DNA of 33,568 bases from a virus. Lineage: Duplodnaviria > Heunggongvirae > Uroviricota > Caudoviricetes. A program made the position numbers and the translations under genes. Shown in pieces: positions 20,279-33,568 of the stretch (position 1 is its first letter; every line of letters begins with the position of its first letter). A model generated the notes under the pieces. It was not told the origin of the DNA, did not search any database, and was given only the letters and a program-made list of their open reading frames with translations. Location of the stretch: the IMG/VR virus record IMGVR_UViG_2534681672_000004, one strand, 5' to 3'.

Positions 20279-20442
20279 GAGTCAGGTGTCCTGAGTTGGG
20301 TTATCGGGTCGGTTGTAGTTTCCCGACTCAGCCGCTCACCAGCCACCGGTTACAGAAGTGCAACCCCTGACACAACAGGGGGTTAGCGATTCATCCCCCC
20401 TGAATCTTTAGCCTTGCCGTGTACTCATCACGGCGAGGTTTT

Positions 20443-22212
20443 ATGACCACTACAACCGACACATCACTACTCAACGATCCGCGACGACAGGCCGCGCTTT
20501 TGTTCTGGCAGGGCTATTCCGTGCCACAAATCGCGGAACAGTTGCAGGTCAAGCGCCCCACGGTGCAGAGCTGGAAGCAGCGCGATAAATGGGAAAAAAC
20601 CGCACCGTTAAACCGGGTCGAGTTCACGCTCGAGGCTCGGCTGATTCAGCTCTATGCAAAGCCTGACCTGACGGCTCATGACTTTAAGGTCGCGGATTTT
20701 CTGGCGCGCCAGATGGAACGCCTCGCGCGGGTCAGTCGTTACGGTCAGACAGGTAACGCAGCGGATTTAAACCCGAACGTGGCCAACCGCAACAAAGGGG
20801 AAAAGAAGAAGCCGAAAAAGAACTTTTTCAGCGAAGAGGCTATCGACAAGCTCGAAGAGATTTTCCTCGACCAGTCTTTCGACTATCAGCTCGAGTGGTG
20901 GCGCGCGGGGCTGGCGCACCGTATCAGGCACATCCTGAAATCACGACAGATTGGAGCGACATTCTACTTTGCGCGAGAGGCGCTGTTACAGGCGCTGAAG
21001 ACCGGCCACAACCAGATATTTTTATCGGCCAGTAAGACACAGGCCTATGTATTTCGAAAATACATCATCGCCTTTGCCCGACTGGCTGGCGTCGAGCTCA
21101 CCGGCGACCCGATTGTGCTCGGCAACAATGGCGCGGAGCTGATGTTTCTCGGCACCAATGCCAACACGGCGCAGAGCCACAACGGCGACCTGTATGTCGA
21201 TGAAATTTTCTGGATCCCCAACTTCCAGAAGCTGAAGCGCGTTGCCGGTGGCATGTCTTCACAGGAGCATTTGCGCACGACCTATTTTTCGACCCCCTCA
21301 TCGCTGGCGCACGGTGCCTATCCGTTCTGGTCGGGTGAGCAGTTCAACAAGGGACGCTCAGACAAGAGCGAGCGCGTCGATATCGATATCAGTCACGCAG
21401 CACTCGCGAAGGGTGTCGCTTGCCCGGACGGCCAGTGGCGGCAGATTGTCACCATCGAGGACGCACTCGCTAAAGGGTGCACACTGTTTAACATCGACAC
21501 GCTGAAGCGCGAGAACAGCGTCGATGAGTTCCGTAATCTGTTTATGTGCGAGTTCGTCGACGATAAAGCGTCGGTATTCCCGTTCGAAGAGCTGCAACGC
21601 TGCATGGTCGACAGCCTCGAGAAATGGGAGGACTACACGCCATTTGCCGACCGGCCTTTCGGTCACCGCCCGGTGTGGATTGGTTACGACCCGTCATTAC
21701 GCGGCGACAGCGCCGGGTGCGTCGTCATCGCGCCGCCAGTCGTCGCCGGTGGACGATTCCGAATCCTCGAGCGCCATCAGTGGAAAGGGATGGATTTTGC
21801 TCAACAGGCCGAATCCATTCGCGAGCTCACGCAGAAATATACCGTCGAATACATCGGCATCGATGCGACCGGGCTCGGACAGGGCGTTTTCCAGTTAGTG
21901 CGCTCATTCTACCCGGCAGCGCGTGAAATCCGCTACACGCCGGAAATGAAAACCGCAATGGTGCTGAAAGCCAAAGACACCATTCGCCGCGGTTGCCTCG
22001 AGTACGACGTCAGCGCGACCGATATCACGCAGTCGTTTATGTCTATCCGCAAAACCATGACCAGCAGCGGGCGCAGCTCGACCTATGAGGCCAGCCGCAC
22101 CGAGGAAGCCAGTCACGCCGATCTCGCGTGGGCAACCATGCACGTATTAATCAATGAGCCGCTGACCGCCGCGACCGGCGAACAGTCATCCAGTATTATG
22201 GAGTGGAACTAA
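20443..22212 (+). CDS. P: Terminase large (ATPase) subunit gpP
   Basis: Start at ATG 20443 with GGCGAGG RBS; about 590 aa; divergent from O and followed by Q as in P2. Confidence 0.9.
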   Translation: MTTTTDTSLLNDPRRQAALLFWQGYSVPQIAEQLQVKRPTVQSWKQRDKWEKTAPLNRVEFTLEARLIQLYAKPDLTAHDFKVADFLARQMERLARVSRYGQTGNAADLNPNVANRNKGEKKKPKKNFFSEEAIDKLEEIFLDQSFDYQLEWWRAGLAHRIRHILKSRQIGATFYFAREALLQALKTGHNQIFLSASKTQAYVFRKYIIAFARLAGVELTGDPIVLGNNGAELMFLGTNANTAQSHNGDLYVDEIFWIPNFQKLKRVAGGMSSQEHLRTTYFSTPSSLAHGAYPFWSGEQFNKGRSDKSERVDIDISHAALAKGVACPDGQWRQIVTIEDALAKGCTLFNIDTLKRENSVDEFRNLFMCEFVDDKASVFPFEELQRCMVDSLEKWEDYTPFADRPFGHRPVWIGYDPSLRGDSAGCVVIAPPVVAGGRFRILERHQWKGMDFAQQAESIRELTQKYTVEYIGIDATGLGQGVFQLVRSFYPAAREIRYTPEMKTAMVLKAKDTIRRGCLEYDVSATDITQSFMSIRKTMTSSGRSSTYEASRTEEASHADLAWATMHVLINEPLTAATGEQSSSIMEWN

Positions 22213-23240
22213 TGAGCAAGAATCGCAACAACAAGCGACAGCAGCCGCGCCCCCAAAGTCACACCGCCGCATCGGCACAGAGCATGGAGGCATTCACCTT
22301 TGGCGAGCCGACGCCGGTACTCGATCGCCGCGACATTCTCGATTATGTGGAGTGCATCGACAACGGCCAATGGTATGAGCCGCCGGTGAGCTTCTCCGGG
22401 CTGGCGAAGAGCATGCGCGCCGCCGTTCATCACAGCTCACCGATTTACGTGAAGCGTAATATTCTGGTGTCGACCTACATCCCGCACCCGCTGTTATCGC
22501 GTCAGGATTTCAGCCGGTTCGTGCTCGATTATCTGGTATTTGGCAACGCCTTTCTCGAAGAGCGTCGCGGTCTGACTGGCAAGCCGCTAAAGCTGGAGAC
22601 CTCACCGGCCAAATATACCCGTCGTGGCGTTGATGATGACGTGTACTGGTATATCCAGTCCTACACGCAACCGCACCAGTTTTCGCCCGGTTCCGTCTTC
22701 CACCTGCTTGAGCCTGATATTAATCAGGAGCTGTACGGGATGCCGGAATACCTGAGCGCACTCAATTCAGCCTGGCTGAATGAGTCAGCGACACTGTTTC
22801 GTCGCAAGTATTACCAGAACGGCGCGCACGCAGGGTACATCATGTATGTGACCGATGCCGCTCAGAACAGCACTGACGTCGAAGCGTTGCGAAAGGCGAT
22901 GCGCGACTCGAAAGGGCTCGGCAATTTTAAGAATCTGTTTTTCTACGCACCGCACGGTAAACCGGATGGGATTAAAATTGTGCCGCTGAGCGAAGTCGCG
23001 ACGAAGGATGATTTTTTTAATATCAAGAAAGTCAGCGCCGCTGACCTGCTCGACGCGCACCGCATCCCGTTCCAGTTGATGGGCGGCAAGCCTGAGAACG
23101 TCGGCTCAGTGGGCGATATTGAGAAAGTGGCAAAAGTATTTGTTCGCAATGAATTAACTCCATTGCAAGATAGGATTCGTGAATTAAATCATTGGTTTGG
23201 TGATAATTTAATTAAGTTCAAGCCGTATACCTTTGATTAA
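22212..23240 (+). CDS. Q: Portal protein gpQ (last ~35 codons AT-rich, possibly chimeric)
   Basis: ATG 22212 overlaps the P stop (TAATG); about 342 aa, close to P2 Q length. Confidence 0.9.
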   Translation: MSKNRNNKRQQPRPQSHTAASAQSMEAFTFGEPTPVLDRRDILDYVECIDNGQWYEPPVSFSGLAKSMRAAVHHSSPIYVKRNILVSTYIPHPLLSRQDFSRFVLDYLVFGNAFLEERRGLTGKPLKLETSPAKYTRRGVDDDVYWYIQSYTQPHQFSPGSVFHLLEPDINQELYGMPEYLSALNSAWLNESATLFRRKYYQNGAHAGYIMYVTDAAQNSTDVEALRKAMRDSKGLGNFKNLFFYAPHGKPDGIKIVPLSEVATKDDFFNIKKVSAADLLDAHRIPFQLMGGKPENVGSVGDIEKVAKVFVRNELTPLQDRIRELNHWFGDNLIKFKPYTFD

Positions 23241-23296: not shown

Positions 23297-23983
23297 TTAT
23301 TGCTTATCTTGTGGTGGTGGAACCTCTTTTTCTAAATTATCTACATACTCTCTAATATTGAATGCTTTGTTTTTCCTTATTTCGGTAGTGTTAACCTTAC
23401 TAACACCATCACGAATGTTTTTATTTATGGTGTCTATTAATTTTTGTCTTTCTTGTTCTGTTTTTATTATTTCACTTAAGAATGACTTTGCGTTTCTTGA
23501 AATGTCCGTCTGTCTATTAATGAATAGTATCGCATACACTGAAAAAACCAAGCAAGTAGTCGTTAGTGCGGAATTAAAAAATACCCCATAATAAACATTA
23601 ACTTTTGTTATTGACGCTGATAACGTTAGTGATATCAAAAAAAACAAAATCAGGGTAAAAATATATGCAATGGTTACTTTGTTTTTAGTGGTGTCAAGAA
23701 TGTATGAAGTTCTTTGATCATCAAAGTAATCCTTTATCCTTGATGGAGTGTTTGCGGGGAGTTCTAACTCCTTTATTTTATCATCAGCATCAATTAGTCG
23801 CTTAAACATGAGGCTAATGATTACGGCGCTAAAGACAGAGATCCCCTTTGAAATTATAGGATCGAAATCAATTAAAAATGAGTATTTTGAATAAACAAAA
23901 ACAATAACAAAACCACATATAAGCCCAATTACAATTGAGCTTGCTATGTTTTTTGCATATGTTTGTAACGTATTGTTTATCAT
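23297..23983 (-). CDS. Four-TM membrane protein, second gene of an AT-rich two-gene cargo operon (candidate effector)
   Basis: Four hydrophobic helices followed by a charged C-terminal tail; ATG overlaps the upstream gene's TGA (ATGA coupling); strongly AT-rich. Confidence 0.7.
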   Translation of the reverse strand: MINNTLQTYAKNIASSIVIGLICGFVIVFVYSKYSFLIDFDPIISKGISVFSAVIISLMFKRLIDADDKIKELELPANTPSRIKDYFDDQRTSYILDTTKNKVTIAYIFTLILFFLISLTLSASITKVNVYYGVFFNSALTTTCLVFSVYAILFINRQTDISRNAKSFLSEIIKTEQERQKLIDTINKNIRDGVSKVNTTEIRKNKAFNIREYVDNLEKEVPPPQDKQ

Positions 23984-24963
23984 GGGTTAATTACTCCGGT
24001 GTCTAGTAAGCGCAATAACCATGAAATCATTTCTTCAGCAACGTTGTCAGCAATTAGCATTCCATTGCTGTATTCAATATTAACTGAATCCTTTAGTTGA
24101 ATCTCATCATTCCTGAGTATTCCTGCACCTTTTAACTCAATTGTTAAGCTTTCATCTCTATTATCAACCAAGCCTTGTGTAATTTTACGCAACATGTCTT
24201 GCTCAGACTCGCTTGCTTTATATTTATACCCAATGGAAATATCAATTGATAGAGATTCCCTGTCAGGTGAACCATCATTTAAAATGGTATTTTTCTTCAT
24301 TTCATTAATTCGATGTTCACCTACGAGCGTTTTTAATAGCTCACTAGCTGTATCATCAATATTATTTCCATAGTAGGTTAAAGGCAGCTTTAAGCTAACA
24401 TTTTTTACTATGTTACGTTTTAAAAAATCCGTATTTAGAGACAGGTTGTTTGCCTGTAAAACGATGAAGTTATCATCAGTAATAGATAGGTTGTCTTGTA
24501 GTATGAAATTTATATAATTTTCAATATCTTTTATTCTAATAGATCTGCTTTGCAGAATTATGAAGTGGTTCTTAATCACACCAATGTATGCAATGCTTTC
24601 TAAATACTCTCTAGCATTCCCACTTGATAAATTTAATGTCTCGTATGTTAAAGCTGTTTTAGCATAATCGCTAACAGAGAAAACAGGAATGCTACTACCC
24701 GGTTCAATATAGACAATTTCCGCAAAAAACATTCCATGAATTTCTTTGCTATTTGAAAGAACCATGTGGGCGTGAGCAGCGACATTACCATTATTATCTG
24801 GAACATCAGGGAAGAATAATCTATCAGCAACATTTGGAACCTTGATTTTCACAAGGTTTGCCAACCTATCTTGCAGGTTTGATGTTAAAAGAGCATCCTT
24901 TTTAGGAAGCATTATTGCATGGCGATAATGCAGCATTTTACTCTTATAATCTTGCGTTGCCAT
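23980..24963 (-). CDS. Hypothetical cytoplasmic protein, first gene of the AT-rich two-gene cargo operon (candidate sensor/enzyme)
   Basis: 327-aa ORF with GAGGGA RBS before ATG 24963; no motif I can recognise; between portal gene Q and cos. Confidence 0.7.
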   Translation of the reverse strand: MATQDYKSKMLHYRHAIMLPKKDALLTSNLQDRLANLVKIKVPNVADRLFFPDVPDNNGNVAAHAHMVLSNSKEIHGMFFAEIVYIEPGSSIPVFSVSDYAKTALTYETLNLSSGNAREYLESIAYIGVIKNHFIILQSRSIRIKDIENYINFILQDNLSITDDNFIVLQANNLSLNTDFLKRNIVKNVSLKLPLTYYGNNIDDTASELLKTLVGEHRINEMKKNTILNDGSPDRESLSIDISIGYKYKASESEQDMLRKITQGLVDNRDESLTIELKGAGILRNDEIQLKDSVNIEYSNGMLIADNVAEEMISWLLRLLDTGVINP

Positions 24964-25053: not shown

Positions 25054-25334
25054 TGCCCGCTTTATGGGGCGGTTTTAATGCAGTTGCATGACCACTCTGG
25101 ATACGCGCCAGCTGTGGCGGCACACGGCTAGAACGTGCAACCCATGTCGCATGCAAAATCATGCGCCTGATGCATGCACAGCTAAAAAACGGGAAATTCG
25201 TGGAAAAATGGCATAAAAAACGACTTTGAAAGTGCCGGCCATGGTCAGATTTTCAAGGGCAGGCTAACGCCTCGCGCGGCTCGTTGTTCAAACCCGCTGA
25301 CGCCAAAATCTAGTTTTTGCATCAGCGCGTTTAC

Positions 25335-25517
25335 CTATTCAGCCTTATAGAAAATTTCGTCTTTTTCTTCGTCGCTTTCGCTGTTAGCTAGGCCGGCAAT
25401 CAGAGTTAGTGCCAGCTTCAAATCTGCCGGTTTGCAGTTGGCAATAAGAGATATCTCGGCGATAAATTGCACACAAGCCCACTTTTGCTGCGTTCGGCTG
25501 AAATGTTTCCCAACCAT
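25335..25517 (-). CDS. Small SOS-regulated protein, possible Tum-like antirepressor
   Basis: 60-aa ORF with GGGAGGG RBS; a near-consensus LexA box lies about 20 bp upstream; position downstream of A matches tum in phage 186. Confidence 0.5.
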   Translation of the reverse strand: MVGKHFSRTQQKWACVQFIAEISLIANCKPADLKLALTLIAGLANSESDEEKDEIFYKAE

Positions 25518-25537
25518 GAAATCCCTCCCAATAGGAT

Positions 25538-25557
25538 TACTGTGTATTTATACAGTA
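25538..25557. promoter_or_regulatory. LexA operator (SOS box)
   Basis: TACTGTGTATTTATACAGTA matches the E. coli LexA consensus TACTGTATATATATACAGTA at 18 of 20 positions, with perfect CTGT-N8-ACAG. Confidence 0.8.
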
Positions 25558-25706
25558 TAACGTATTGGCAAAAGATGGGAAGAGAAAAAGTGAATCGGGT
25601 AGGTGTTGTATGTACATGATATGGATGTAAATTAATCACCTGTGAGTTTTGATGTTTCTGCCAGCACCGCAACACGATTAAGGATTTCCCTAGGCTTTGC
25701 CTGAAG

Positions 25707-27854
25707 CTATGGCGCTGCGGAGAAAATTTCACCTTTGGACGTTCCACGCAACCATTTACCGTTAATACAACTTTTGCCACCTGCTATCAGGTGCAGGGCT
25801 TCTCCCCGGCTGATGGTAATGCCGGTTGTCAGACGGATCTCGTCGATAGTTTTTTCTATCGGAGCACTTTGCTCATCTGTTCCGTGGATAAATTTCGGCC
25901 TCTTAGGTGGCTTTGGTTTCCTGATTCGGTTCGTCAGCTCTCGCCTTTCACGTCGACTCAGGGGTTTTGATAAATCGAGTTCCGGTGGATCGCTTTCGCT
26001 TCCCGTACAGTTATTGACAGAACTCCAAGGGACGGCGAAGCCGTCCTTAACGTCAACGGCCAAATCAACGGCACGCTTCGGAACAATTTTCCATTGCGTG
26101 AGCCGGGTTAAAATCGGAGTGCCAACACCAACGGTGGAGTCGTACACACCACGAATGCAGACAGTTTCCTCACCATACTGGTTAAACTCGGTGCGCGGTT
26201 CATAAAGCGTACGCACCTGCAAATCATCGCGACGGACAAACGGACCGCCCTGCGCATTAACATAGCCAGCCCAATCACCGGCATCGGCGGCATCATGGAC
26301 AGCCGCAAACTCAACACTTAGACCGTGCGCGGTCTCGGTATCTGCAAGGCGACGCAATTCACGATAAACAGTCACTGGTGCACCACCGATAAACTGAAAC
26401 TGACGAATATGCCAGCGCGCCGCCCATGCTGAAACGGCGGGGGCTGTCTCTTTCAACAGTTCACCGTTTTCGTCATCGGTTTCGTCATCAAGAGCGTAAC
26501 CGTCGATATTTTTCGAGATGTATTTCGCGACGTAGCCGGTTGCGCTGCCTTTCTCCGGATCAATGGCTTCTGCGTGGAAACGTGCTTTTTTGGCTTTATC
26601 GCTTTTGAGTTCGTGAAAATCTTCTTGCCATGCGTAGTCCCGAATAATGCCACGAACGGTATCGACGTCCTCCGGGAGCATAAACATCAGCATATGCCAG
26701 TGAGGGCACCCGTCATGGTGAGGCTCTGCAACGCGGATCCCGAAAATACGAATGTCTTCACGGTGGAGTTTTGCGCGAATGCGTGCCCACAGGCCAGTGA
26801 GATAACATTGCGTATCGGATGGATTGGATCCATTCCATTTGGTGTTACGGTAGCCTGCCTTTGTCGTGGCGTGATATTTAGACGGTGCGGTCAGGGTGTA
26901 AAACTCACCAACATAACCGAGCTCATTGCAGATATTTTCAAACCCACGAATGCGGGTCATAAGCTCACAGCGTCGAATCGCAGAGTTAGCGACTGAACCA
27001 TCGTATTTTTCAATCAGGCTGATACGGTTGCCGTCTTCGTCTTCAAGCTCCAGACCTTTGAGAAATTCGCGCGTCCGGCGCTTCTGTTCACGCCAGTCTG
27101 TCACGCAGTTTTTACTCGCGTAGACATGTTTTTTCTTACTGACATTTCCGATTGCGATTTGCAGGTGTTCGCGCCACGCAGCCGCAATGCGACGCAGACG
27201 GCCACGCCACCATTTTTCCGAAAACATACGGGCAATTGCTGGAGCGACTTTATCCTGATCCCAATATTTATCCCGCGACCGTTCCCACTCTGGTGGCATT
27301 ATCCTGAATTGCTGAGTGATGAAACCAGCATGCATATACCAGGCATTTAATGTCTCCAGTTCACACATGTCAGAATCGTCAATGTTGACTAACTCTGCAC
27401 GGATAAAATCGGCGATATCAGCAGCCAGCAGGTCGATGTCGGCGCGTGCCATATCCGGGAGTCGGTTGTATCTGGCGACTATGTTGACCATGCGAGACGC
27501 CAGATATTGCATAAGCTGAGTATCGAAATGACAACCGAAAACAGCGGCTGATACGTTGCTGTTAATACCGGTACACTCGTATTTTTTTGCGACCAGTTCA
27601 AAACGCGGCAATGCCTTTTTGCAGAAGCTTATTAAAAAAGCATTGGCTCGTTGACTGCCCTGATTTTGCTCCAGCACCGCAGCAGTGCGATAAACGTCAA
27701 AACGTACACACTCGGGCTGGAGGGAAAGCACCTTTCTAGCATGCAGCAAAGCCGCGAGCATACGGTCGCGGCGATACTGTTGGTCGTAGGTAAGATATGG
27801 ACTGGCTATTGCCGACCGTGGAGCATTCCACGGAAACGCGAATTGAACAGCCAA
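25707..27854 (-). CDS. A: Replication initiation protein gpA (rolling-circle initiator)
   Basis: 715-aa ORF; region ...IRVAEPHHDGCPHWHMLMFM... and ...YVAKYISKNIDGY... with the active-site Tyr context characteristic of P2/186 A. Confidence 0.9.
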   Translation of the reverse strand: MAVQFAFPWNAPRSAIASPYLTYDQQYRRDRMLAALLHARKVLSLQPECVRFDVYRTAAVLEQNQGSQRANAFLISFCKKALPRFELVAKKYECTGINSNVSAAVFGCHFDTQLMQYLASRMVNIVARYNRLPDMARADIDLLAADIADFIRAELVNIDDSDMCELETLNAWYMHAGFITQQFRIMPPEWERSRDKYWDQDKVAPAIARMFSEKWWRGRLRRIAAAWREHLQIAIGNVSKKKHVYASKNCVTDWREQKRRTREFLKGLELEDEDGNRISLIEKYDGSVANSAIRRCELMTRIRGFENICNELGYVGEFYTLTAPSKYHATTKAGYRNTKWNGSNPSDTQCYLTGLWARIRAKLHREDIRIFGIRVAEPHHDGCPHWHMLMFMLPEDVDTVRGIIRDYAWQEDFHELKSDKAKKARFHAEAIDPEKGSATGYVAKYISKNIDGYALDDETDDENGELLKETAPAVSAWAARWHIRQFQFIGGAPVTVYRELRRLADTETAHGLSVEFAAVHDAADAGDWAGYVNAQGGPFVRRDDLQVRTLYEPRTEFNQYGEETVCIRGVYDSTVGVGTPILTRLTQWKIVPKRAVDLAVDVKDGFAVPWSSVNNCTGSESDPPELDLSKPLSRRERRELTNRIRKPKPPKRPKFIHGTDEQSAPIEKTIDEIRLTTGITISRGEALHLIAGGKSCINGKWLRGTSKGEIFSAAP

Positions 27855-29690: not shown

Positions 29691-30269
29691 ATGAAATTGG
29701 ATGAGTTAGAGGGTGGAAAAGCAGTGCTGCAGCGCATCCTTGATGCGTATGGCTTCACCATGCAAAAACAACTCGGTGACTTGCATGAGCTGTCATCGGG
29801 AACAATCAGCACTTGGGTTCGGCGTAATTTTTTCCCCGGGGATGTTGTTGTTGCATGCGCTTTGGACACTGGGGTGTCTTTACGTTGGTTGGCAACAGGG
29901 AAGGGGAACAAGTTTGATGCAGACCATACTAATGGCGAAATGAAAACATTAGACCGATTGGATATTGTTGCAGGTAAGCTGCAGGAAAACGGTCATTGGA
30001 TTGTTGATGCTAACCTCTTTTCTACTGAGGCGACGCACCCCAATTACATAGTAAAAGGCCAGCAGTCCTGGATAGTTGATTTTGATATGACTGATATAGC
30101 AAATGGGCGATGGATGCTCAGTATCGACGGGGATCATGATGTCTATGACGTTGCAAGGATCCCGGGGAACAGAATAAAAGTCAGCAACGCTGATGCCGAT
30201 TTTCAATGCTCAGTTTCTGAGGTTAAGTGTATTGGCATGGTGCTGGTAAGCCTGACGAAATCTAGCTAA
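29691..30269 (+). CDS. cI: CI immunity repressor (186-type)
   Basis: Start MKLDELEGGKAVLQRILDAYGF...; N-terminal HTH pattern resembles 186 CI as recalled; first gene of the leftward-equivalent operon ahead of int. Confidence 0.75.
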   Translation: MKLDELEGGKAVLQRILDAYGFTMQKQLGDLHELSSGTISTWVRRNFFPGDVVVACALDTGVSLRWLATGKGNKFDADHTNGEMKTLDRLDIVAGKLQENGHWIVDANLFSTEATHPNYIVKGQQSWIVDFDMTDIANGRWMLSIDGDHDVYDVARIPGNRIKVSNADADFQCSVSEVKCIGMVLVSLTKSS

Positions 30270-30273
30270 CGAT

Positions 30274-30815
30274 ATGAGTGTTAAAAAACTGACATCGGGT
30301 GAATGGCTTTGTGATTTCCGCGTCGACGGGGCTGAAAGTCGCCGCGTGCGTAAGAAGTTTTCAACCAAAGGTGAAGCCGTTGCCTTCGAGCAGTATTACC
30401 GAGAAGAGGCACAAAATAAGCCGTGGATGGGTGAGAAGGAAGACCGTCGACGTTTGAGTGAACTGATTGAGCTGTGGCATAACCTCCATGGCCAGTCGCT
30501 CGCTGCCAGCAAATCGCGATTGGCCAAACTGCACATTGTTTGCCGGGGTCTTGGCGACCCAATCGCTACCCAGCTTACCGCCAAAGATTTCGCCCATTAT
30601 CGGGATAAACGTCTCAAGGGTGAAATCGACAATGGCTATCACGCAAATTCTGAAAAGTGGATTGCGAAACCTGTGACTGTGAACCGGGAACAACAGTACC
30701 TCGAAGCTGTTTTCAATGAGCTGAAGCGCTTGGGTGAGTGGAGTCTGCCAAATCCTCTCGAAGGTGTGCGAGTTTTCAAAGAAGCCGAAAAAGAAATGTC
30801 TTGGCTTACCCAGCC
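30274..30815 (+). pseudogene. int: Integrase, N-terminal fragment (interrupted by IS10)
   Basis: Reading frame ends ...KEMSWLTQP then a stop created inside the IS10 end; continues in frame at 32145 once IS10 and one target-duplication copy are removed. Confidence 0.85.
30807..30815. repeat. IS10 target-site duplication, left copy (TACCCAGCC)
   Basis: Identical 9 bp immediately flank both IS10 ends. Confidence 0.85.
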
Positions 30816-30860
30816 CTGATGAATCCCCTAATGATTTTGGTAAAAATCATTAAGTTAAGG

Positions 30861-30930
30861 TGGATACACATCTTGTCATATGATCAAATGGTTTCGCGAA
30901 AAATCAATAATCAGACAACAAGATGTGCGA
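30861..30930 (-). ncRNA. IS10 RNA-OUT antisense RNA (approximate position)
   Basis: Placed from established IS10 organisation (pOUT transcript antisense to the 5' end of tnp, near the outside end); coordinates not read from the sequence. Confidence 0.4.
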
Positions 30931-32131
30931 ACTCGATATTTTACACGACTCTCTTTACCAATTCTGCCCCGAATTACACTTAAAACGACTCAACAGCTTA
31001 ACGTTGGCTTGCCACGCATTACTTGACTGTAAAACTCTCACTCTTACCGAACTTGGCCGTAACCTGCCAACCAAAGCGAGAACAAAACATAACATCAAAC
31101 GAATCGACCGATTGTTAGGTAATCGTCACCTCCACAAAGAGCGACTCGCTGTATACCGTTGGCATGCTAGCTTTATCTGTTCGGGCAATACGATGCCCAT
31201 TGTACTTGTTGACTGGTCTGATATTCGTGAGCAAAAACGACTTATGGTATTGCGAGCTTCAGTCGCACTACACGGTCGTTCTGTTACTCTTTATGAGAAA
31301 GCGTTCCCGCTTTCAGAGCAATGTTCAAAGAAAGCTCATGACCAATTTCTAGCCGACCTTGCGAGCATTCTACCGAGTAACACCACACCGCTCATTGTCA
31401 GTGATGCTGGCTTTAAAGTGCCATGGTATAAATCCGTTGAGAAGCTGGGTTGGTACTGGTTAAGTCGAGTAAGAGGAAAAGTACAATATGCAGACCTAGG
31501 AGCGGAAAACTGGAAACCTATCAGCAACTTACATGATATGTCATCTAGTCACTCAAAGACTTTAGGCTATAAGAGGCTGACTAAAAGCAATCCAATCTCA
31601 TGCCAAATTCTATTGTATAAATCTCGCTCTAAAGGCCGAAAAAATCAGCGCTCGACACGGACTCATTGTCACCACCCGTCACCTAAAATCTACTCAGCGT
31701 CGGCAAAGGAGCCATGGGTTCTAGCAACTAACTTACCTGTTGAAATTCGAACACCCAAACAACTTGTTAATATCTATTCGAAGCGAATGCAGATTGAAGA
31801 AACCTTCCGAGACTTGAAAAGTCCTGCCTACGGACTAGGCCTACGCCATAGCCGAACGAGCAGCTCAGAGCGTTTTGATATCATGCTGCTAATCGCCCTG
31901 ATGCTTCAACTAACATGTTGGCTTGCGGGCGTTCATGCTCAGAAACAAGGTTGGGACAAGCACTTCCAGGCTAACACAGTCAGAAATCGAAACGTACTCT
32001 CAACAGTTCGCTTAGGCATGGAAGTTTTGCGGCATTCTGGCTACACAATAACAAGGGAAGACTTACTCGTGGCTGCAACCCTACTAGCTCAAAATTTATT
32101 CACACATGGTTACGCTTTGGGGAAATTATGA
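30923..32131 (+). CDS. tnp: IS10 transposase
   Basis: 402-aa protein MCELDILHDSLYQFCPELHLKRLNSLTLACHALLDCKTLTLTELGRNLPTKARTKHNIKRIDRLLGNRHL..., recognised as IS10 transposase from memory. Confidence 0.95.
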   Translation: MCELDILHDSLYQFCPELHLKRLNSLTLACHALLDCKTLTLTELGRNLPTKARTKHNIKRIDRLLGNRHLHKERLAVYRWHASFICSGNTMPIVLVDWSDIREQKRLMVLRASVALHGRSVTLYEKAFPLSEQCSKKAHDQFLADLASILPSNTTPLIVSDAGFKVPWYKSVEKLGWYWLSRVRGKVQYADLGAENWKPISNLHDMSSSHSKTLGYKRLTKSNPISCQILLYKSRSKGRKNQRSTRTHCHHPSPKIYSASAKEPWVLATNLPVEIRTPKQLVNIYSKRMQIEETFRDLKSPAYGLGLRHSRTSSSERFDIMLLIALMLQLTCWLAGVHAQKQGWDKHFQANTVRNRNVLSTVRLGMEVLRHSGYTITREDLLVAATLLAQNLFTHGYALGKL

Positions 32132-32144
32132 GGGGATCTCTCAG

Positions 32145-32153
32145 TACCCAGCC
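32145..32153. repeat. IS10 target-site duplication, right copy (TACCCAGCC)
   Basis: Identical to 30807-30815. Confidence 0.85.
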
Positions 32154-32649
32154 TCAAATTCGCGAAGTGCTCAATGCTTGTGAGTCATACGGGAAAATTT
32201 ATTTAACCCGTATCGTCAAAGTGTGCTTAGCGACTGGTGCTCGATGGAGCGAGGCCGAGCGTCTTACTCGTTCACAGCTTTCACCCCACAAGTTGACTTT
32301 CACTAAAACGAAGGGAAAGAAGAATCGTACAGTACCGATCCCTCGGTGGCTATATGACGAGTTGGCTCCTTTACAGGGAAAAATGTTCCACCCCTGCTAT
32401 CAGGAGTTCAAGAAAATGCTCGCTCTGACCGATATAGAGTTAGCTGAAGGGCAAAAAACGCATGTGTTACGTCATACATTTGCGAGTCACTTTATGATGA
32501 ATGGTGGGAACATTTTAGTACTGCAACGAATCTTGGGCCATTCTAACATTAGGGAAACCATGAGATACGCTCATTTTGCACCAGATCATTTAGAAGAAGC
32601 TGTAACTCTTAACCCTATTTCTAATTTAACAGGATTATATGATGAGTGA
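32145..32649 (+). pseudogene. int: Integrase, C-terminal catalytic fragment (tyrosine recombinase)
   Basis: Contains ARWSEAERL, HVLRHTFASH and RETMRYAHF (R...HxxR...Y catalytic residues); in frame with the N-terminal fragment across the IS10 junction (...TQP|QIREVL...). Confidence 0.85.
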
Positions 32650-33568
32650 GCCAACCATCGAAACACCTCCAAGAATGACCGAGGCCAAAGTCATTAGGGT
32701 ACGCACTCGTGGTTTTTATAATTTAGTTGAGATAGGTGCAGTCTTTCTAGTTGCAAATGTAATTTTTGCTACAGGGATATTAGACTCAACCTTTTATTAT
32801 TTATTTCCCAGTGCGAGAGCAGATCTTACACATTTGCCGAGCTTTATCAGGTCAATATTCGCAGTGTCATTTGTAATCGTTTACACCATTATCTATGGTG
32901 TGTCTCCAATCCAAAGAATGTTTATGAGAATTACAGGGAGTGATTCAGTCGACAAATCATCGATGTTTAATATTGTCGATATTATAAATGAGATAAAACT
33001 ACTCAAGAAGGCTCAAGAGGAAAGGGCTGCTGCTGATGAAGATGAATCTCTGGATTTTTATCTTAAAGGTTTGATTAATAGCTCTGAAGGTCTTGCGAAA
33101 AACATATATTCTCGCGGTAGTCTTTATTTATTAGTCGGTGTTTGTTTTGCAATAGTTGGATTAGGTTTCTTCTATTCTCAATCACATGTAATTGATGCTA
33201 AGGATGATGCGGTAACCAAGGTAATGTATCTTCTCCCTAATTTTGGCGTGTTGATTTTCTTGGAGTTAATCGCATTTTTCTTTTTGAAGCAATATCGGGT
33301 TACGATGGATGAGTTTCGCTATTACGAGGCAATAAAACGTTCACGTGAGGAAAGCTATGCCATTATAAAGCTTGTAATGGCTAGCCAGAAAGATATCGAT
33401 ATGATAGACCTTCTGGATAAAATTAATTTTAGCTCAAGAGTTGGAAAACTAGAATCAGGGCAGACTACTGAAATTATTGAAGCAAGAAAATTAGACAAAA
33501 ATGAACTTGAAACCTTAGTAAAGCTTACCGAGGCAGTTGCGGGTAAGATTGGACAGGGAAATAAGTAG
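32639..33568 (+). CDS. AT-rich four-TM membrane protein with a long C-terminal soluble region, overlapping the int 3' end; candidate lysogen-expressed accessory/exclusion gene
   Basis: 309-aa ORF whose ATGATG start overlaps the int stop by 11 nt; four hydrophobic helices; same strand as cI-int and sharply AT-rich. Confidence 0.6.
   Translation: MMSEPTIETPPRMTEAKVIRVRTRGFYNLVEIGAVFLVANVIFATGILDSTFYYLFPSARADLTHLPSFIRSIFAVSFVIVYTIIYGVSPIQRMFMRITGSDSVDKSSMFNIVDIINEIKLLKKAQEERAAADEDESLDFYLKGLINSSEGLAKNIYSRGSLYLLVGVCFAIVGLGFFYSQSHVIDAKDDAVTKVMYLLPNFGVLIFLELIAFFFLKQYRVTMDEFRYYEAIKRSREESYAIIKLVMASQKDIDMIDLLDKINFSSRVGKLESGQTTEIIEARKLDKNELETLVKLTEAVAGKIGQGNK

Follow-up and report, generated by a model that had tools for sequence, protein, structure and literature searches.

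In phage 186, transcription from the p95 promoter is repressed by LexA and derepressed in the SOS response (186 annotation; PMC7708051; PMC3121763). The Tum protein of this phage binds reversibly to the CI repressor and blocks its binding to operators, thus freeing the lytic promoter pR (PMC7708051; PMC3121763), and the p95-tum fragment has been employed as a UV-induction module (PMC7708051). 186 Tum has been noted to look like an antirepressor fused to DinI, whereas in Fels-2 and PSP3 a stop codon divides tum into an antirepressor gene, located upstream, and a dinI homologue that comes after it (PMC3121763). For the upstream gene of PSP3, antirepressor activity is quoted in PMC3121763 from a personal communication (E. 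Christie, via Bunny et al. 2002). In addition, the tum gene of DuoHS, a prophage of E. coli HS, has been deleted experimentally (PMC12055606).

The stretch of DNA analysed here (33,568 nt in total, henceforth the window) is a 186-like (P2 family, Eganvirus-type) prophage of E. coli in reverse orientation, encoding a TraR/DksA-like protein, CII (Pfam Phage_CP76), an Apl/Cox-like protein and an integrase in addition to the following landmarks:

20419-23240: terminase and portal genes
25707-27854, minus strand: homolog of replication gene A, ending at 25632 if its amber codon is read through
29691-30269, plus strand: cI, a 186-type immunity repressor gene (Pfam Phage_CI_repr and Phage_CI_C), the product of which is the presumed target of TumA

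Downstream of gene A, the minus strand carries a candidate SOS operon with these predicted elements:

25581-25576, minus strand: -35 hexamer TTCCCA of a p95-type, sigma-70-like promoter (promoter scan)
25559-25554, minus strand: -10 hexamer TATACT (promoter scan), separated from the -35 by a 16-nt spacer
25538-25557: LexA (SOS) box, aligned with the annotated LexA site of 186
25529-25523, minus strand: ribosome-binding site GGGAGGG (read from the sequence)
25517-25335, minus strand: tumA, predicted to encode a TumA-type small antirepressor of 60 aa, with its stop codon TAG at 25337-25335

The sequence TACTGTGTATTTATACAGTA at 25538-25557, which reads TACTGTATAAATACACAGTA on the minus (coding) strand, matches the LexA consensus TACTGTATATATATACAGTA at 18 of 20 positions, that is, with two mismatches. 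No other site with three or fewer mismatches to this consensus is present in the whole 33.6-kb window, and none of 100 dinucleotide-preserving shuffles of the window generated one. The loose core CTGT-N8-ACAG is not significant by itself, with five instances in the window against 2.9 expected. These results bear out the preliminary description, made from the sequence alone, which had reported a near-consensus LexA box directly upstream of a 60-aa ORF. The strong ribosome-binding site and the gap of about 20 bp that it mentioned are likewise present, with GGGAGGG located 5 nt before the ATG and a distance of exactly 20 nt between the box and this start codon (25517). The box shares 4 nt with the -10 hexamer TATACT, and a 186-style -10 (TACTGT) would fall at 25557-25552 on the minus strand. 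As is characteristic of 186-type SOS operons, the promoter located downstream of gene A hence has its -10 and presumed start site covered by the LexA box.

The intergenic region between gene A and the 60-aa ORF can be aligned with those of phages 186, PSP3 and vB_EcoM-613R3, and in this alignment the promoter matches 186 p95 base for base, including its annotated LexA site. The 186 record annotates p95 as 'SOS-dependent transcription of SOS operon', with TTCACA as its -35 and a -10 that corresponds to the first 6 nt of the LexA site TACTGTATGTTTATACAGTA; the box of the window lies at the same place. Conservation extends to the -35, the spacing and the LexA core, also in a broader set of 35 aligned sequences, and identifies the predicted tumA promoter as an ortholog of 186 p95.

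The protein encoded downstream of this promoter is 83% identical to PSP3 TumA, and a translated search of phage genomes returned ten records with 82-83% identity to it. The PSP3 record describes tumA as 'similar to 5' end 186 tum; UV induction of prophage' and tumB, which starts 4 nt after tumA, as 'similar to dinI and 3' end of 186 tum', and the same pair is annotated in 613R3 as 'UV induction of prophage' and 'DNA-damage-inducible protein I'. The sequence of the 60-aa protein thus assigns it to the TumA family, as the predicted free-standing upstream half of a split tum. Searches of a large protein database identified 112 TumA clusters (E up to 2e-11), nearly all of 56-67 aa and almost all from Enterobacterales, several of which carry the UniRef name TumA. 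A few entries are longer, up to 93 aa, apparently as a result of gene calls extended at the N-terminus. An exhaustive profile search added some 25 more distant clusters, mostly of 50-80 aa, that share the same motif and show a DinI fusion in no instance. All the residues of the invariant family core (V16, Q17, I19, E21, L24, A26, N27, C28, K29, P30, L33, L35, A36, I40, A41 and L43) are present in the window protein. An AF2 model of moderate confidence (pLDDT 67) folds it into a helical hairpin, with helices at residues 8-25 and 30-50, and an acidic tail. Foldseek searches with this model against the PDB returned only generic helical hairpins (E>2), and a PDB sequence search with the TumA family profile gave no match.

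Residues 4-60 match PHROG 1993 (phrog_1993; E=3e-28), which is labelled 'unknown function' in PHROGs; the protein is hypothetical in RefSeq and has no match in Pfam, NCBIfam or PADLOC. The analysis hence supplies a name and a probable function for a gene left without either in these resources. The preliminary description had pointed to a homology search against Tum and other small antirepressors as a check, which yields PSP3 TumA as an 83% identical match and 186 Tum as a weak profile match. Its suggestion of a distinct small antirepressor is essentially correct, but the type is not new, since TumA had already been named in PSP3.

Beyond the tumA stop codon, the following features lead to the right end of the phage genome:

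25295-25327, minus strand: conserved hairpin with stem CGCUGAUGC / GCGUCAGCG, just past the tumA stop codon (RNA folding)
25212-25239, minus strand: region homologous to the 186 t95b terminator, with a T-run at 25220-25215
25053-25035, minus strand: cos cohesive-end 19-mer GGCGTGGCGGGGATAGCAT, identical to the annotated 186 cos at 18 of 19 positions

Phages 186, PSP3 and 613R3 keep the stem of this hairpin at the corresponding position, with compensatory changes in two pairs when compared with 186, and the hairpin could represent an RNA structure or part of the packaging region. At the right end of 186, positions 30343-30624 include terminator t95b and show 82% identity to 25332-25054 (minus strand) of the window. 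In the t95b-like region the T-run is kept and the stem is weaker than in 186, and a terminator scan did not flag the region, which by homology is probably the end of the tumA transcript. The alignment to the right end of 186 ends at 25054, and, given the position of the cos 19-mer, about 280 nt lie between the tumA operon and the right-hand terminus of the phage genome. The predicted order of the operon is therefore promoter, tumA, terminator-like region and cos, in a minimal form. Rfam searches detected no RNA family near the tumA locus, the sole match in the window being the RNA-OUT of an IS10 element.

Besides its two CI domains (Phage_CI_repr, E=3e-24; Phage_CI_C, E=1e-24), the presumed target of TumA shows no match to Peptidase_S24. 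The window thus encodes a 186-type CI that lacks a RecA-dependent self-cleavage domain, which implies that the prophage needs an antirepressor for SOS induction and leaves an antirepressor as the only visible route from the SOS response to induction. When phage records are ranked by similarity to the window CI, the top ten (47-50% identity) are precisely the ten that carry TumA, and all other records reach at most 35%. In comparisons of the window with PSP3 and with a Yokenella prophage, residues 1-75 of CI (the HTH domain) are 79% identical and residues 76-192 (the C-terminal region) are 32-34% identical, whereas TumA is 83-90% identical. In the comparison with 186, identity is 39% and 20% for the same two segments of CI and about 33% for the Tum core. 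The conservation of TumA hence tracks that of the N-terminal DNA-binding domain of CI, and not that of its C-terminal domain. This suggests that TumA contacts the N-terminal DNA-binding domain, although such co-conservation could simply reflect shared ancestry. Together with the retention of the boxes and the prevalence of the DinI-free form described below, this pattern provides a testable idea of the TumA binding site.

The CI proteins compared also differ in their architecture. Those of PSP3 and the Yokenella prophage (L042:471-1331) have 286 aa, and that of the window has 192 aa and a single HTH domain. The full-length Yokenella CI has an extra N-terminal HTH-like domain that resembles the first, and the stretch of PSP3 cI compared encompasses the C-terminal 226 residues.

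Overall, the promoter alignment, the family assignment and the type of CI make it very likely that this locus is a minimal version of the operon responsible for SOS induction in 186-like prophages, comprising a LexA-repressed promoter, tumA, a terminator region and cos, with TumA freeing the lytic promoter from CI. In undamaged cells, host LexA bound to the box over the -10 and start site would keep tumA silent, as suggested by the position of the box and by the precedent of 186 p95. Following DNA damage, self-cleavage of LexA would allow the tumA promoter to fire. The 60-aa helical-hairpin protein would then build up, bind the 186-type CI reversibly and keep it off its operators, and the lytic promoter would in turn be released, as expected from the behaviour of 186 Tum and the report on PSP3 TumA. 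TumA would do this alone, with no need for a DinI-like partner, given that most of its relatives lack one. The preliminary description had taken the locus for a Tum-like SOS induction module, located behind gene A like tum in 186, and the likeness extends to the promoter, which aligns with p95, and to the 186-type CI, but not to the DinI part. The locus explains how the prophage would sense DNA damage and leaves the accepted picture of induction in 186-like phages unchanged. The arrangement is already known from PSP3 and Fels-2.

The allele deviates from its family at two positions. Position 4, which is E or D in 96 of the 102 TumA family members, is K in the window (E4K), and position 42, which is D in 98 of them and E in one, is G (D42G), so that the near-invariant acidic residues of the family are missing at both sites. 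K4 and G42 are seen exclusively in the window lineage among these 102 members. The residue equivalent to position 42 is E in the 186-type Tum family and acidic in most remote relatives, with P0117, P0136 and P0141 as the few that lack an acidic residue at this point. Of 5426 complete E. coli genomes, 13 carry the 561-bp tumA region of the window, 12 of them with 100% and one with 99.8% identity; over this region the E. coli FORC 064 prophage is 100% identical to the window. These 13 genomes originate from varied hosts and have a cI gene with 99.7-100% identity, and the K4/G42 allele co-occurs with the CI type of the window in this same set. A prophage of Citrobacter portucalensis encodes a CI that differs at one of 192 residues (99% identical) together with a TumA that keeps E4 and D42. 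K4 and G42, considered as a possible adaptation to the unusual CI of the window, are hence not required for this CI, and the sequence comparison suggests that the two substitutions may be neutral or weakening.

Two other changes are apparent in the prophage. At 25709-25707 (minus strand), the serine codon TCG present in gene A of 613R3 and of another E. coli prophage is replaced by TAG. This amber codon removes 25 C-terminal residues of the replication endonuclease, and gene A of FORC 064 is annotated in RefSeq as a pseudogene with an internal stop. In addition, a complete IS10 of 1329 bp at 30816-32144, flanked by 9-bp target duplications (30807-30815 and 32145-32153), splits int into 30274-30819 and 32128-32649. 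It contains the following features:

30923-32131: IS10 transposase ORF
30861-30930: RNA-OUT (Rfam)

Once IS10 is set aside, the window and the FORC 064 prophage show 100% identity over the 4-kb cI-int end, and int is intact in FORC 064. The amber codon in A and the IS10 in int are possible signs of decay.

These observations bear on the main alternative, in which the locus is a TumA switch by descent whose allele is weakened or dead. The loss of two acidic residues through E4K and D42G would then result in a poor or absent SOS response, as part of a prophage being disabled in its host. We regard this as a tentative and rather doubtful explanation. The restriction of K4 and G42 to the window lineage among the 102 family members and the nearly invariant acidic residue at the equivalent of position 42 in the 186-type family and in most remote relatives speak for it, even if the few remote relatives without that residue weaken the second point. 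The retention of E4 and D42 in the Citrobacter prophage with the near-identical CI also points in this direction. The amber codon in gene A of the same lineage and the split int of the window would fit a prophage under inactivation; the loss of 25 C-terminal residues, however, may be tolerated by A, and tumA is intact together with its promoter, LexA box and ribosome-binding site. Furthermore, the near identity of the tumA region (99.8-100%) and of cI (99.7-100%) across 13 E. coli genomes from varied hosts suits a phage that is still spreading. On the same doubtful footing, K4/G42 TumA could be a natural attenuated or inactive antirepressor that uncouples the prophage from the SOS response. 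If that were true, position 42 would mark the CI-contact face of this family of small antirepressors, the one binding the N-terminal domain of CI.

Two other regions of the prophage deserve a brief description. Between the portal gene and cos lies a low-GC (approximately 32%) cassette of two overlapping genes (23297-24963, minus strand), one for a protein of 327 aa (phrog_3482, unknown function) and one for a protein of 228 aa that contains hydrophobic segments. It had no PADLOC match, and its Pfam and NCBIfam matches were weak and far below the curated cut-offs; the cassette could be a moron or defence cargo at a variable spot of P2-like phages. Past int, an ORF of 309 aa (32639-33568, plus strand), likewise with hydrophobic segments, extends to the last position of the window. 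This reading equals the full length annotated in FORC 064, where it is a hypothetical protein beside the host genes yfiB and dgcN, and it may be further prophage cargo.

BLASTP of TumA against 186 Tum returned no alignment. The TumA-family HMM, however, matches residues 17-49 of 186 Tum (E=1.4e-5 in a single comparison), with none of 2000 shuffles of the N-terminal region of Tum reaching the real score. Likewise, hhalign of the TumA family against the 186-type N-terminal family resulted in a probability of 83% (E=9.5e-6) over 33 columns with 33% identity. Profile methods thus detect a weak but significant similarity between the core of TumA and residues 14-49 of 186 Tum, with a common motif C..D..(I/L)AL.LIA(D/E)(I/L)A. 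They provide moderate support for homology of the 60-aa protein to the non-DinI half of 186 Tum, that is, to its N-terminal part. A MAFFT pairing of TumA with the DinI half of Tum was discarded as a forced artefact, since profile methods place TumA on the N-terminal half.

186 Tum has 146 aa, with the Pfam DinI domain at residues 87-145 fused after its TumA-like N-terminal region. The preliminary description had rightly given 186 Tum as about 146 aa and the protein of the window as much shorter (60 aa), a size gap that is explained by the DinI domain fused in 186 and the lack of any DinI part in the window. The 60-aa protein is unmatched by Pfam models, including DinI (PF06183), even at E values up to 10, and tblastn searches of the window with TumB and with the C-terminal part of 186 Tum revealed no DinI-like sequence and no remnant of tumB. 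The tumB ORF is cleanly missing, with the window resuming after the tumA stop codon with the sequence found 3' of tumB in PSP3, 613R3 and another E. coli prophage, so that DinI is neither fused to tumA nor encoded just downstream. Among 31 species-level loci, 20 have no DinI-like gene nearby, which makes the free-standing 60-aa form without DinI the commonest arrangement and indicates that a DinI partner is not a defining trait of the TumA type. Among complete E. coli genomes, the tumB-less form is a minority (13 of about 81); E. coli HS is not among the 60 listed of the 81 matching E. coli genomes. Free-standing proteins of 63-78 aa, named 'Tum protein' (P0144-P0261), that correspond to the N-terminal, non-DinI region of 186-type Tum are widespread as well, and separation from DinI hence occurs in both sequence families.

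The second alternative is that the locus encodes a small SOS-induced protein other than an antirepressor, such as a RecA/SOS modulator like DinI or a protein for exclusion or host takeover. Such a role would be compatible with the 'unknown function' label of PHROG 1993 and the RefSeq designation as hypothetical, with the lack of a solved structure or Pfam family in the searches made with the 60-aa protein and its family profile, and with the annotation of the shorter tum products of 186 as modulating SOS induction. Yet the protein has no similarity to DinI (the tblastn search with TumB was empty and the MAFFT pairing forced), and the half of 186 Tum that it does resemble is the non-DinI one. 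Moreover, TumA co-occurs strictly with one CI clade, and the upstream gene of PSP3 is reported as an antirepressor, by way of the communication quoted in PMC3121763. We consequently consider this alternative improbable, and clearly more so than a weakened allele.

Comparative analysis of the upstream region supports the SOS-induction operon as read here. One locus per species was taken from a genome collection, resulting in 31 usable loci from 16 named Enterobacterales genera, including Enterobacter, Kosakonia, Pantoea and Erwinia. A LexA box with at most four mismatches is located 17-23 nt before the start codon in all 31 species-level loci (20 nt in the window). Across 35 aligned upstream regions, 186 p95 included, the CTGT...ACAGT core is invariant, a -35-like CTTC(C/A)CA is conserved and a purine-rich, GGAGG-like ribosome-binding motif is kept; in the Yokenella locus L042, outside this set, one half of the box reads CTGG. 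The recurrence of the same box at the same place in all 31 loci and the invariance of its core constitute strong comparative evidence that the predicted LexA box is functional. Pairwise differences per site at codon positions 1, 2 and 3 amount to 0.15, 0.05 and 0.52 over 30 homologous loci, a pattern from which we conclude that 25517-25335 is a real gene, evidently under purifying selection. That the ORF is short and the loose CTGT-N8-ACAG core not rare might have hinted at a chance LexA-like palindrome beside a spurious reading frame, but this explanation, of negligible probability, is already refuted by the conservation of box, spacing and ORF in 31 of 31 loci from different genera and by third-codon-position variation ten times that at the second position, and is also opposed by the failure of all 100 shuffles to produce a site with up to three mismatches.

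Two additional features emerged from the aligned loci. The block CATCCATATCATGTACATACA at 25608-25628 (minus strand), just past the read-through stop of A and some 30-50 nt upstream of the -35, includes the palindrome ATGTACAT. It shows almost no variation among 186, PSP3, 613R3 and a dozen other loci, in contrast to its divergent flanks. In Pluralibacter, Kosakonia and related genomes (L014, L016, L017, L020, L021, L024 and L026), the unit formed by the LexA box and tumA is not beside cos, but sits 150-210 nt upstream of a homolog of tail gene X and a holin gene (with tumA at coordinate 3001 or 195 of these loci). The unit hence occurs in more than one genomic context.

Among the known systems compared with the locus, one group is alike in its regulatory logic. 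The GfoA and GftA proteins of Gifsy/Fels-1 and AntC of N15 are LexA-repressed small proteins that bind a phage repressor and block its access to operators (PMC3121763), as proposed here for TumA; the comparison extends to regulatory logic alone. Their targets are lambdoid-type repressors and their operons have dinI first and then the antirepressor (PMC3121763), unlike the window. DinI is SOS-regulated, as predicted for TumA, and Tum-type proteins usually have it beside them or fused to them, whereas the window encodes no DinI-like sequence. The p95-tum module of 186 shares with the window an orthologous promoter, a LexA site over the -10, the same position between gene A and cos, a 186-type CI as target (presumed in the window) and a common core motif C..D..(I/L)AL.LIA.(I/L)A. 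In contrast to the window protein, 186 Tum has 146 aa, a C-terminal DinI domain and several internal starts, and its operon continues into orf97. Its core identity to window TumA is about 33% and BLASTP is negative. The tumA-tumB pair of PSP3 is likewise among the closest known systems, and the same split-tum arrangement is reported for Fels-2 (PMC3121763). The window differs from PSP3 in having no tumB (the DinI homologue) after tumA, in the K4 and G42 residues of its TumA, and in a CI that is approximately 50% identical, with one HTH domain and 192 aa against 286 aa. With PSP3 it shares a 60-aa TumA that is 83% identical and occupies the same place after gene A, the same promoter with a LexA box 19-20 nt upstream, and a CI of the same kind of clade.
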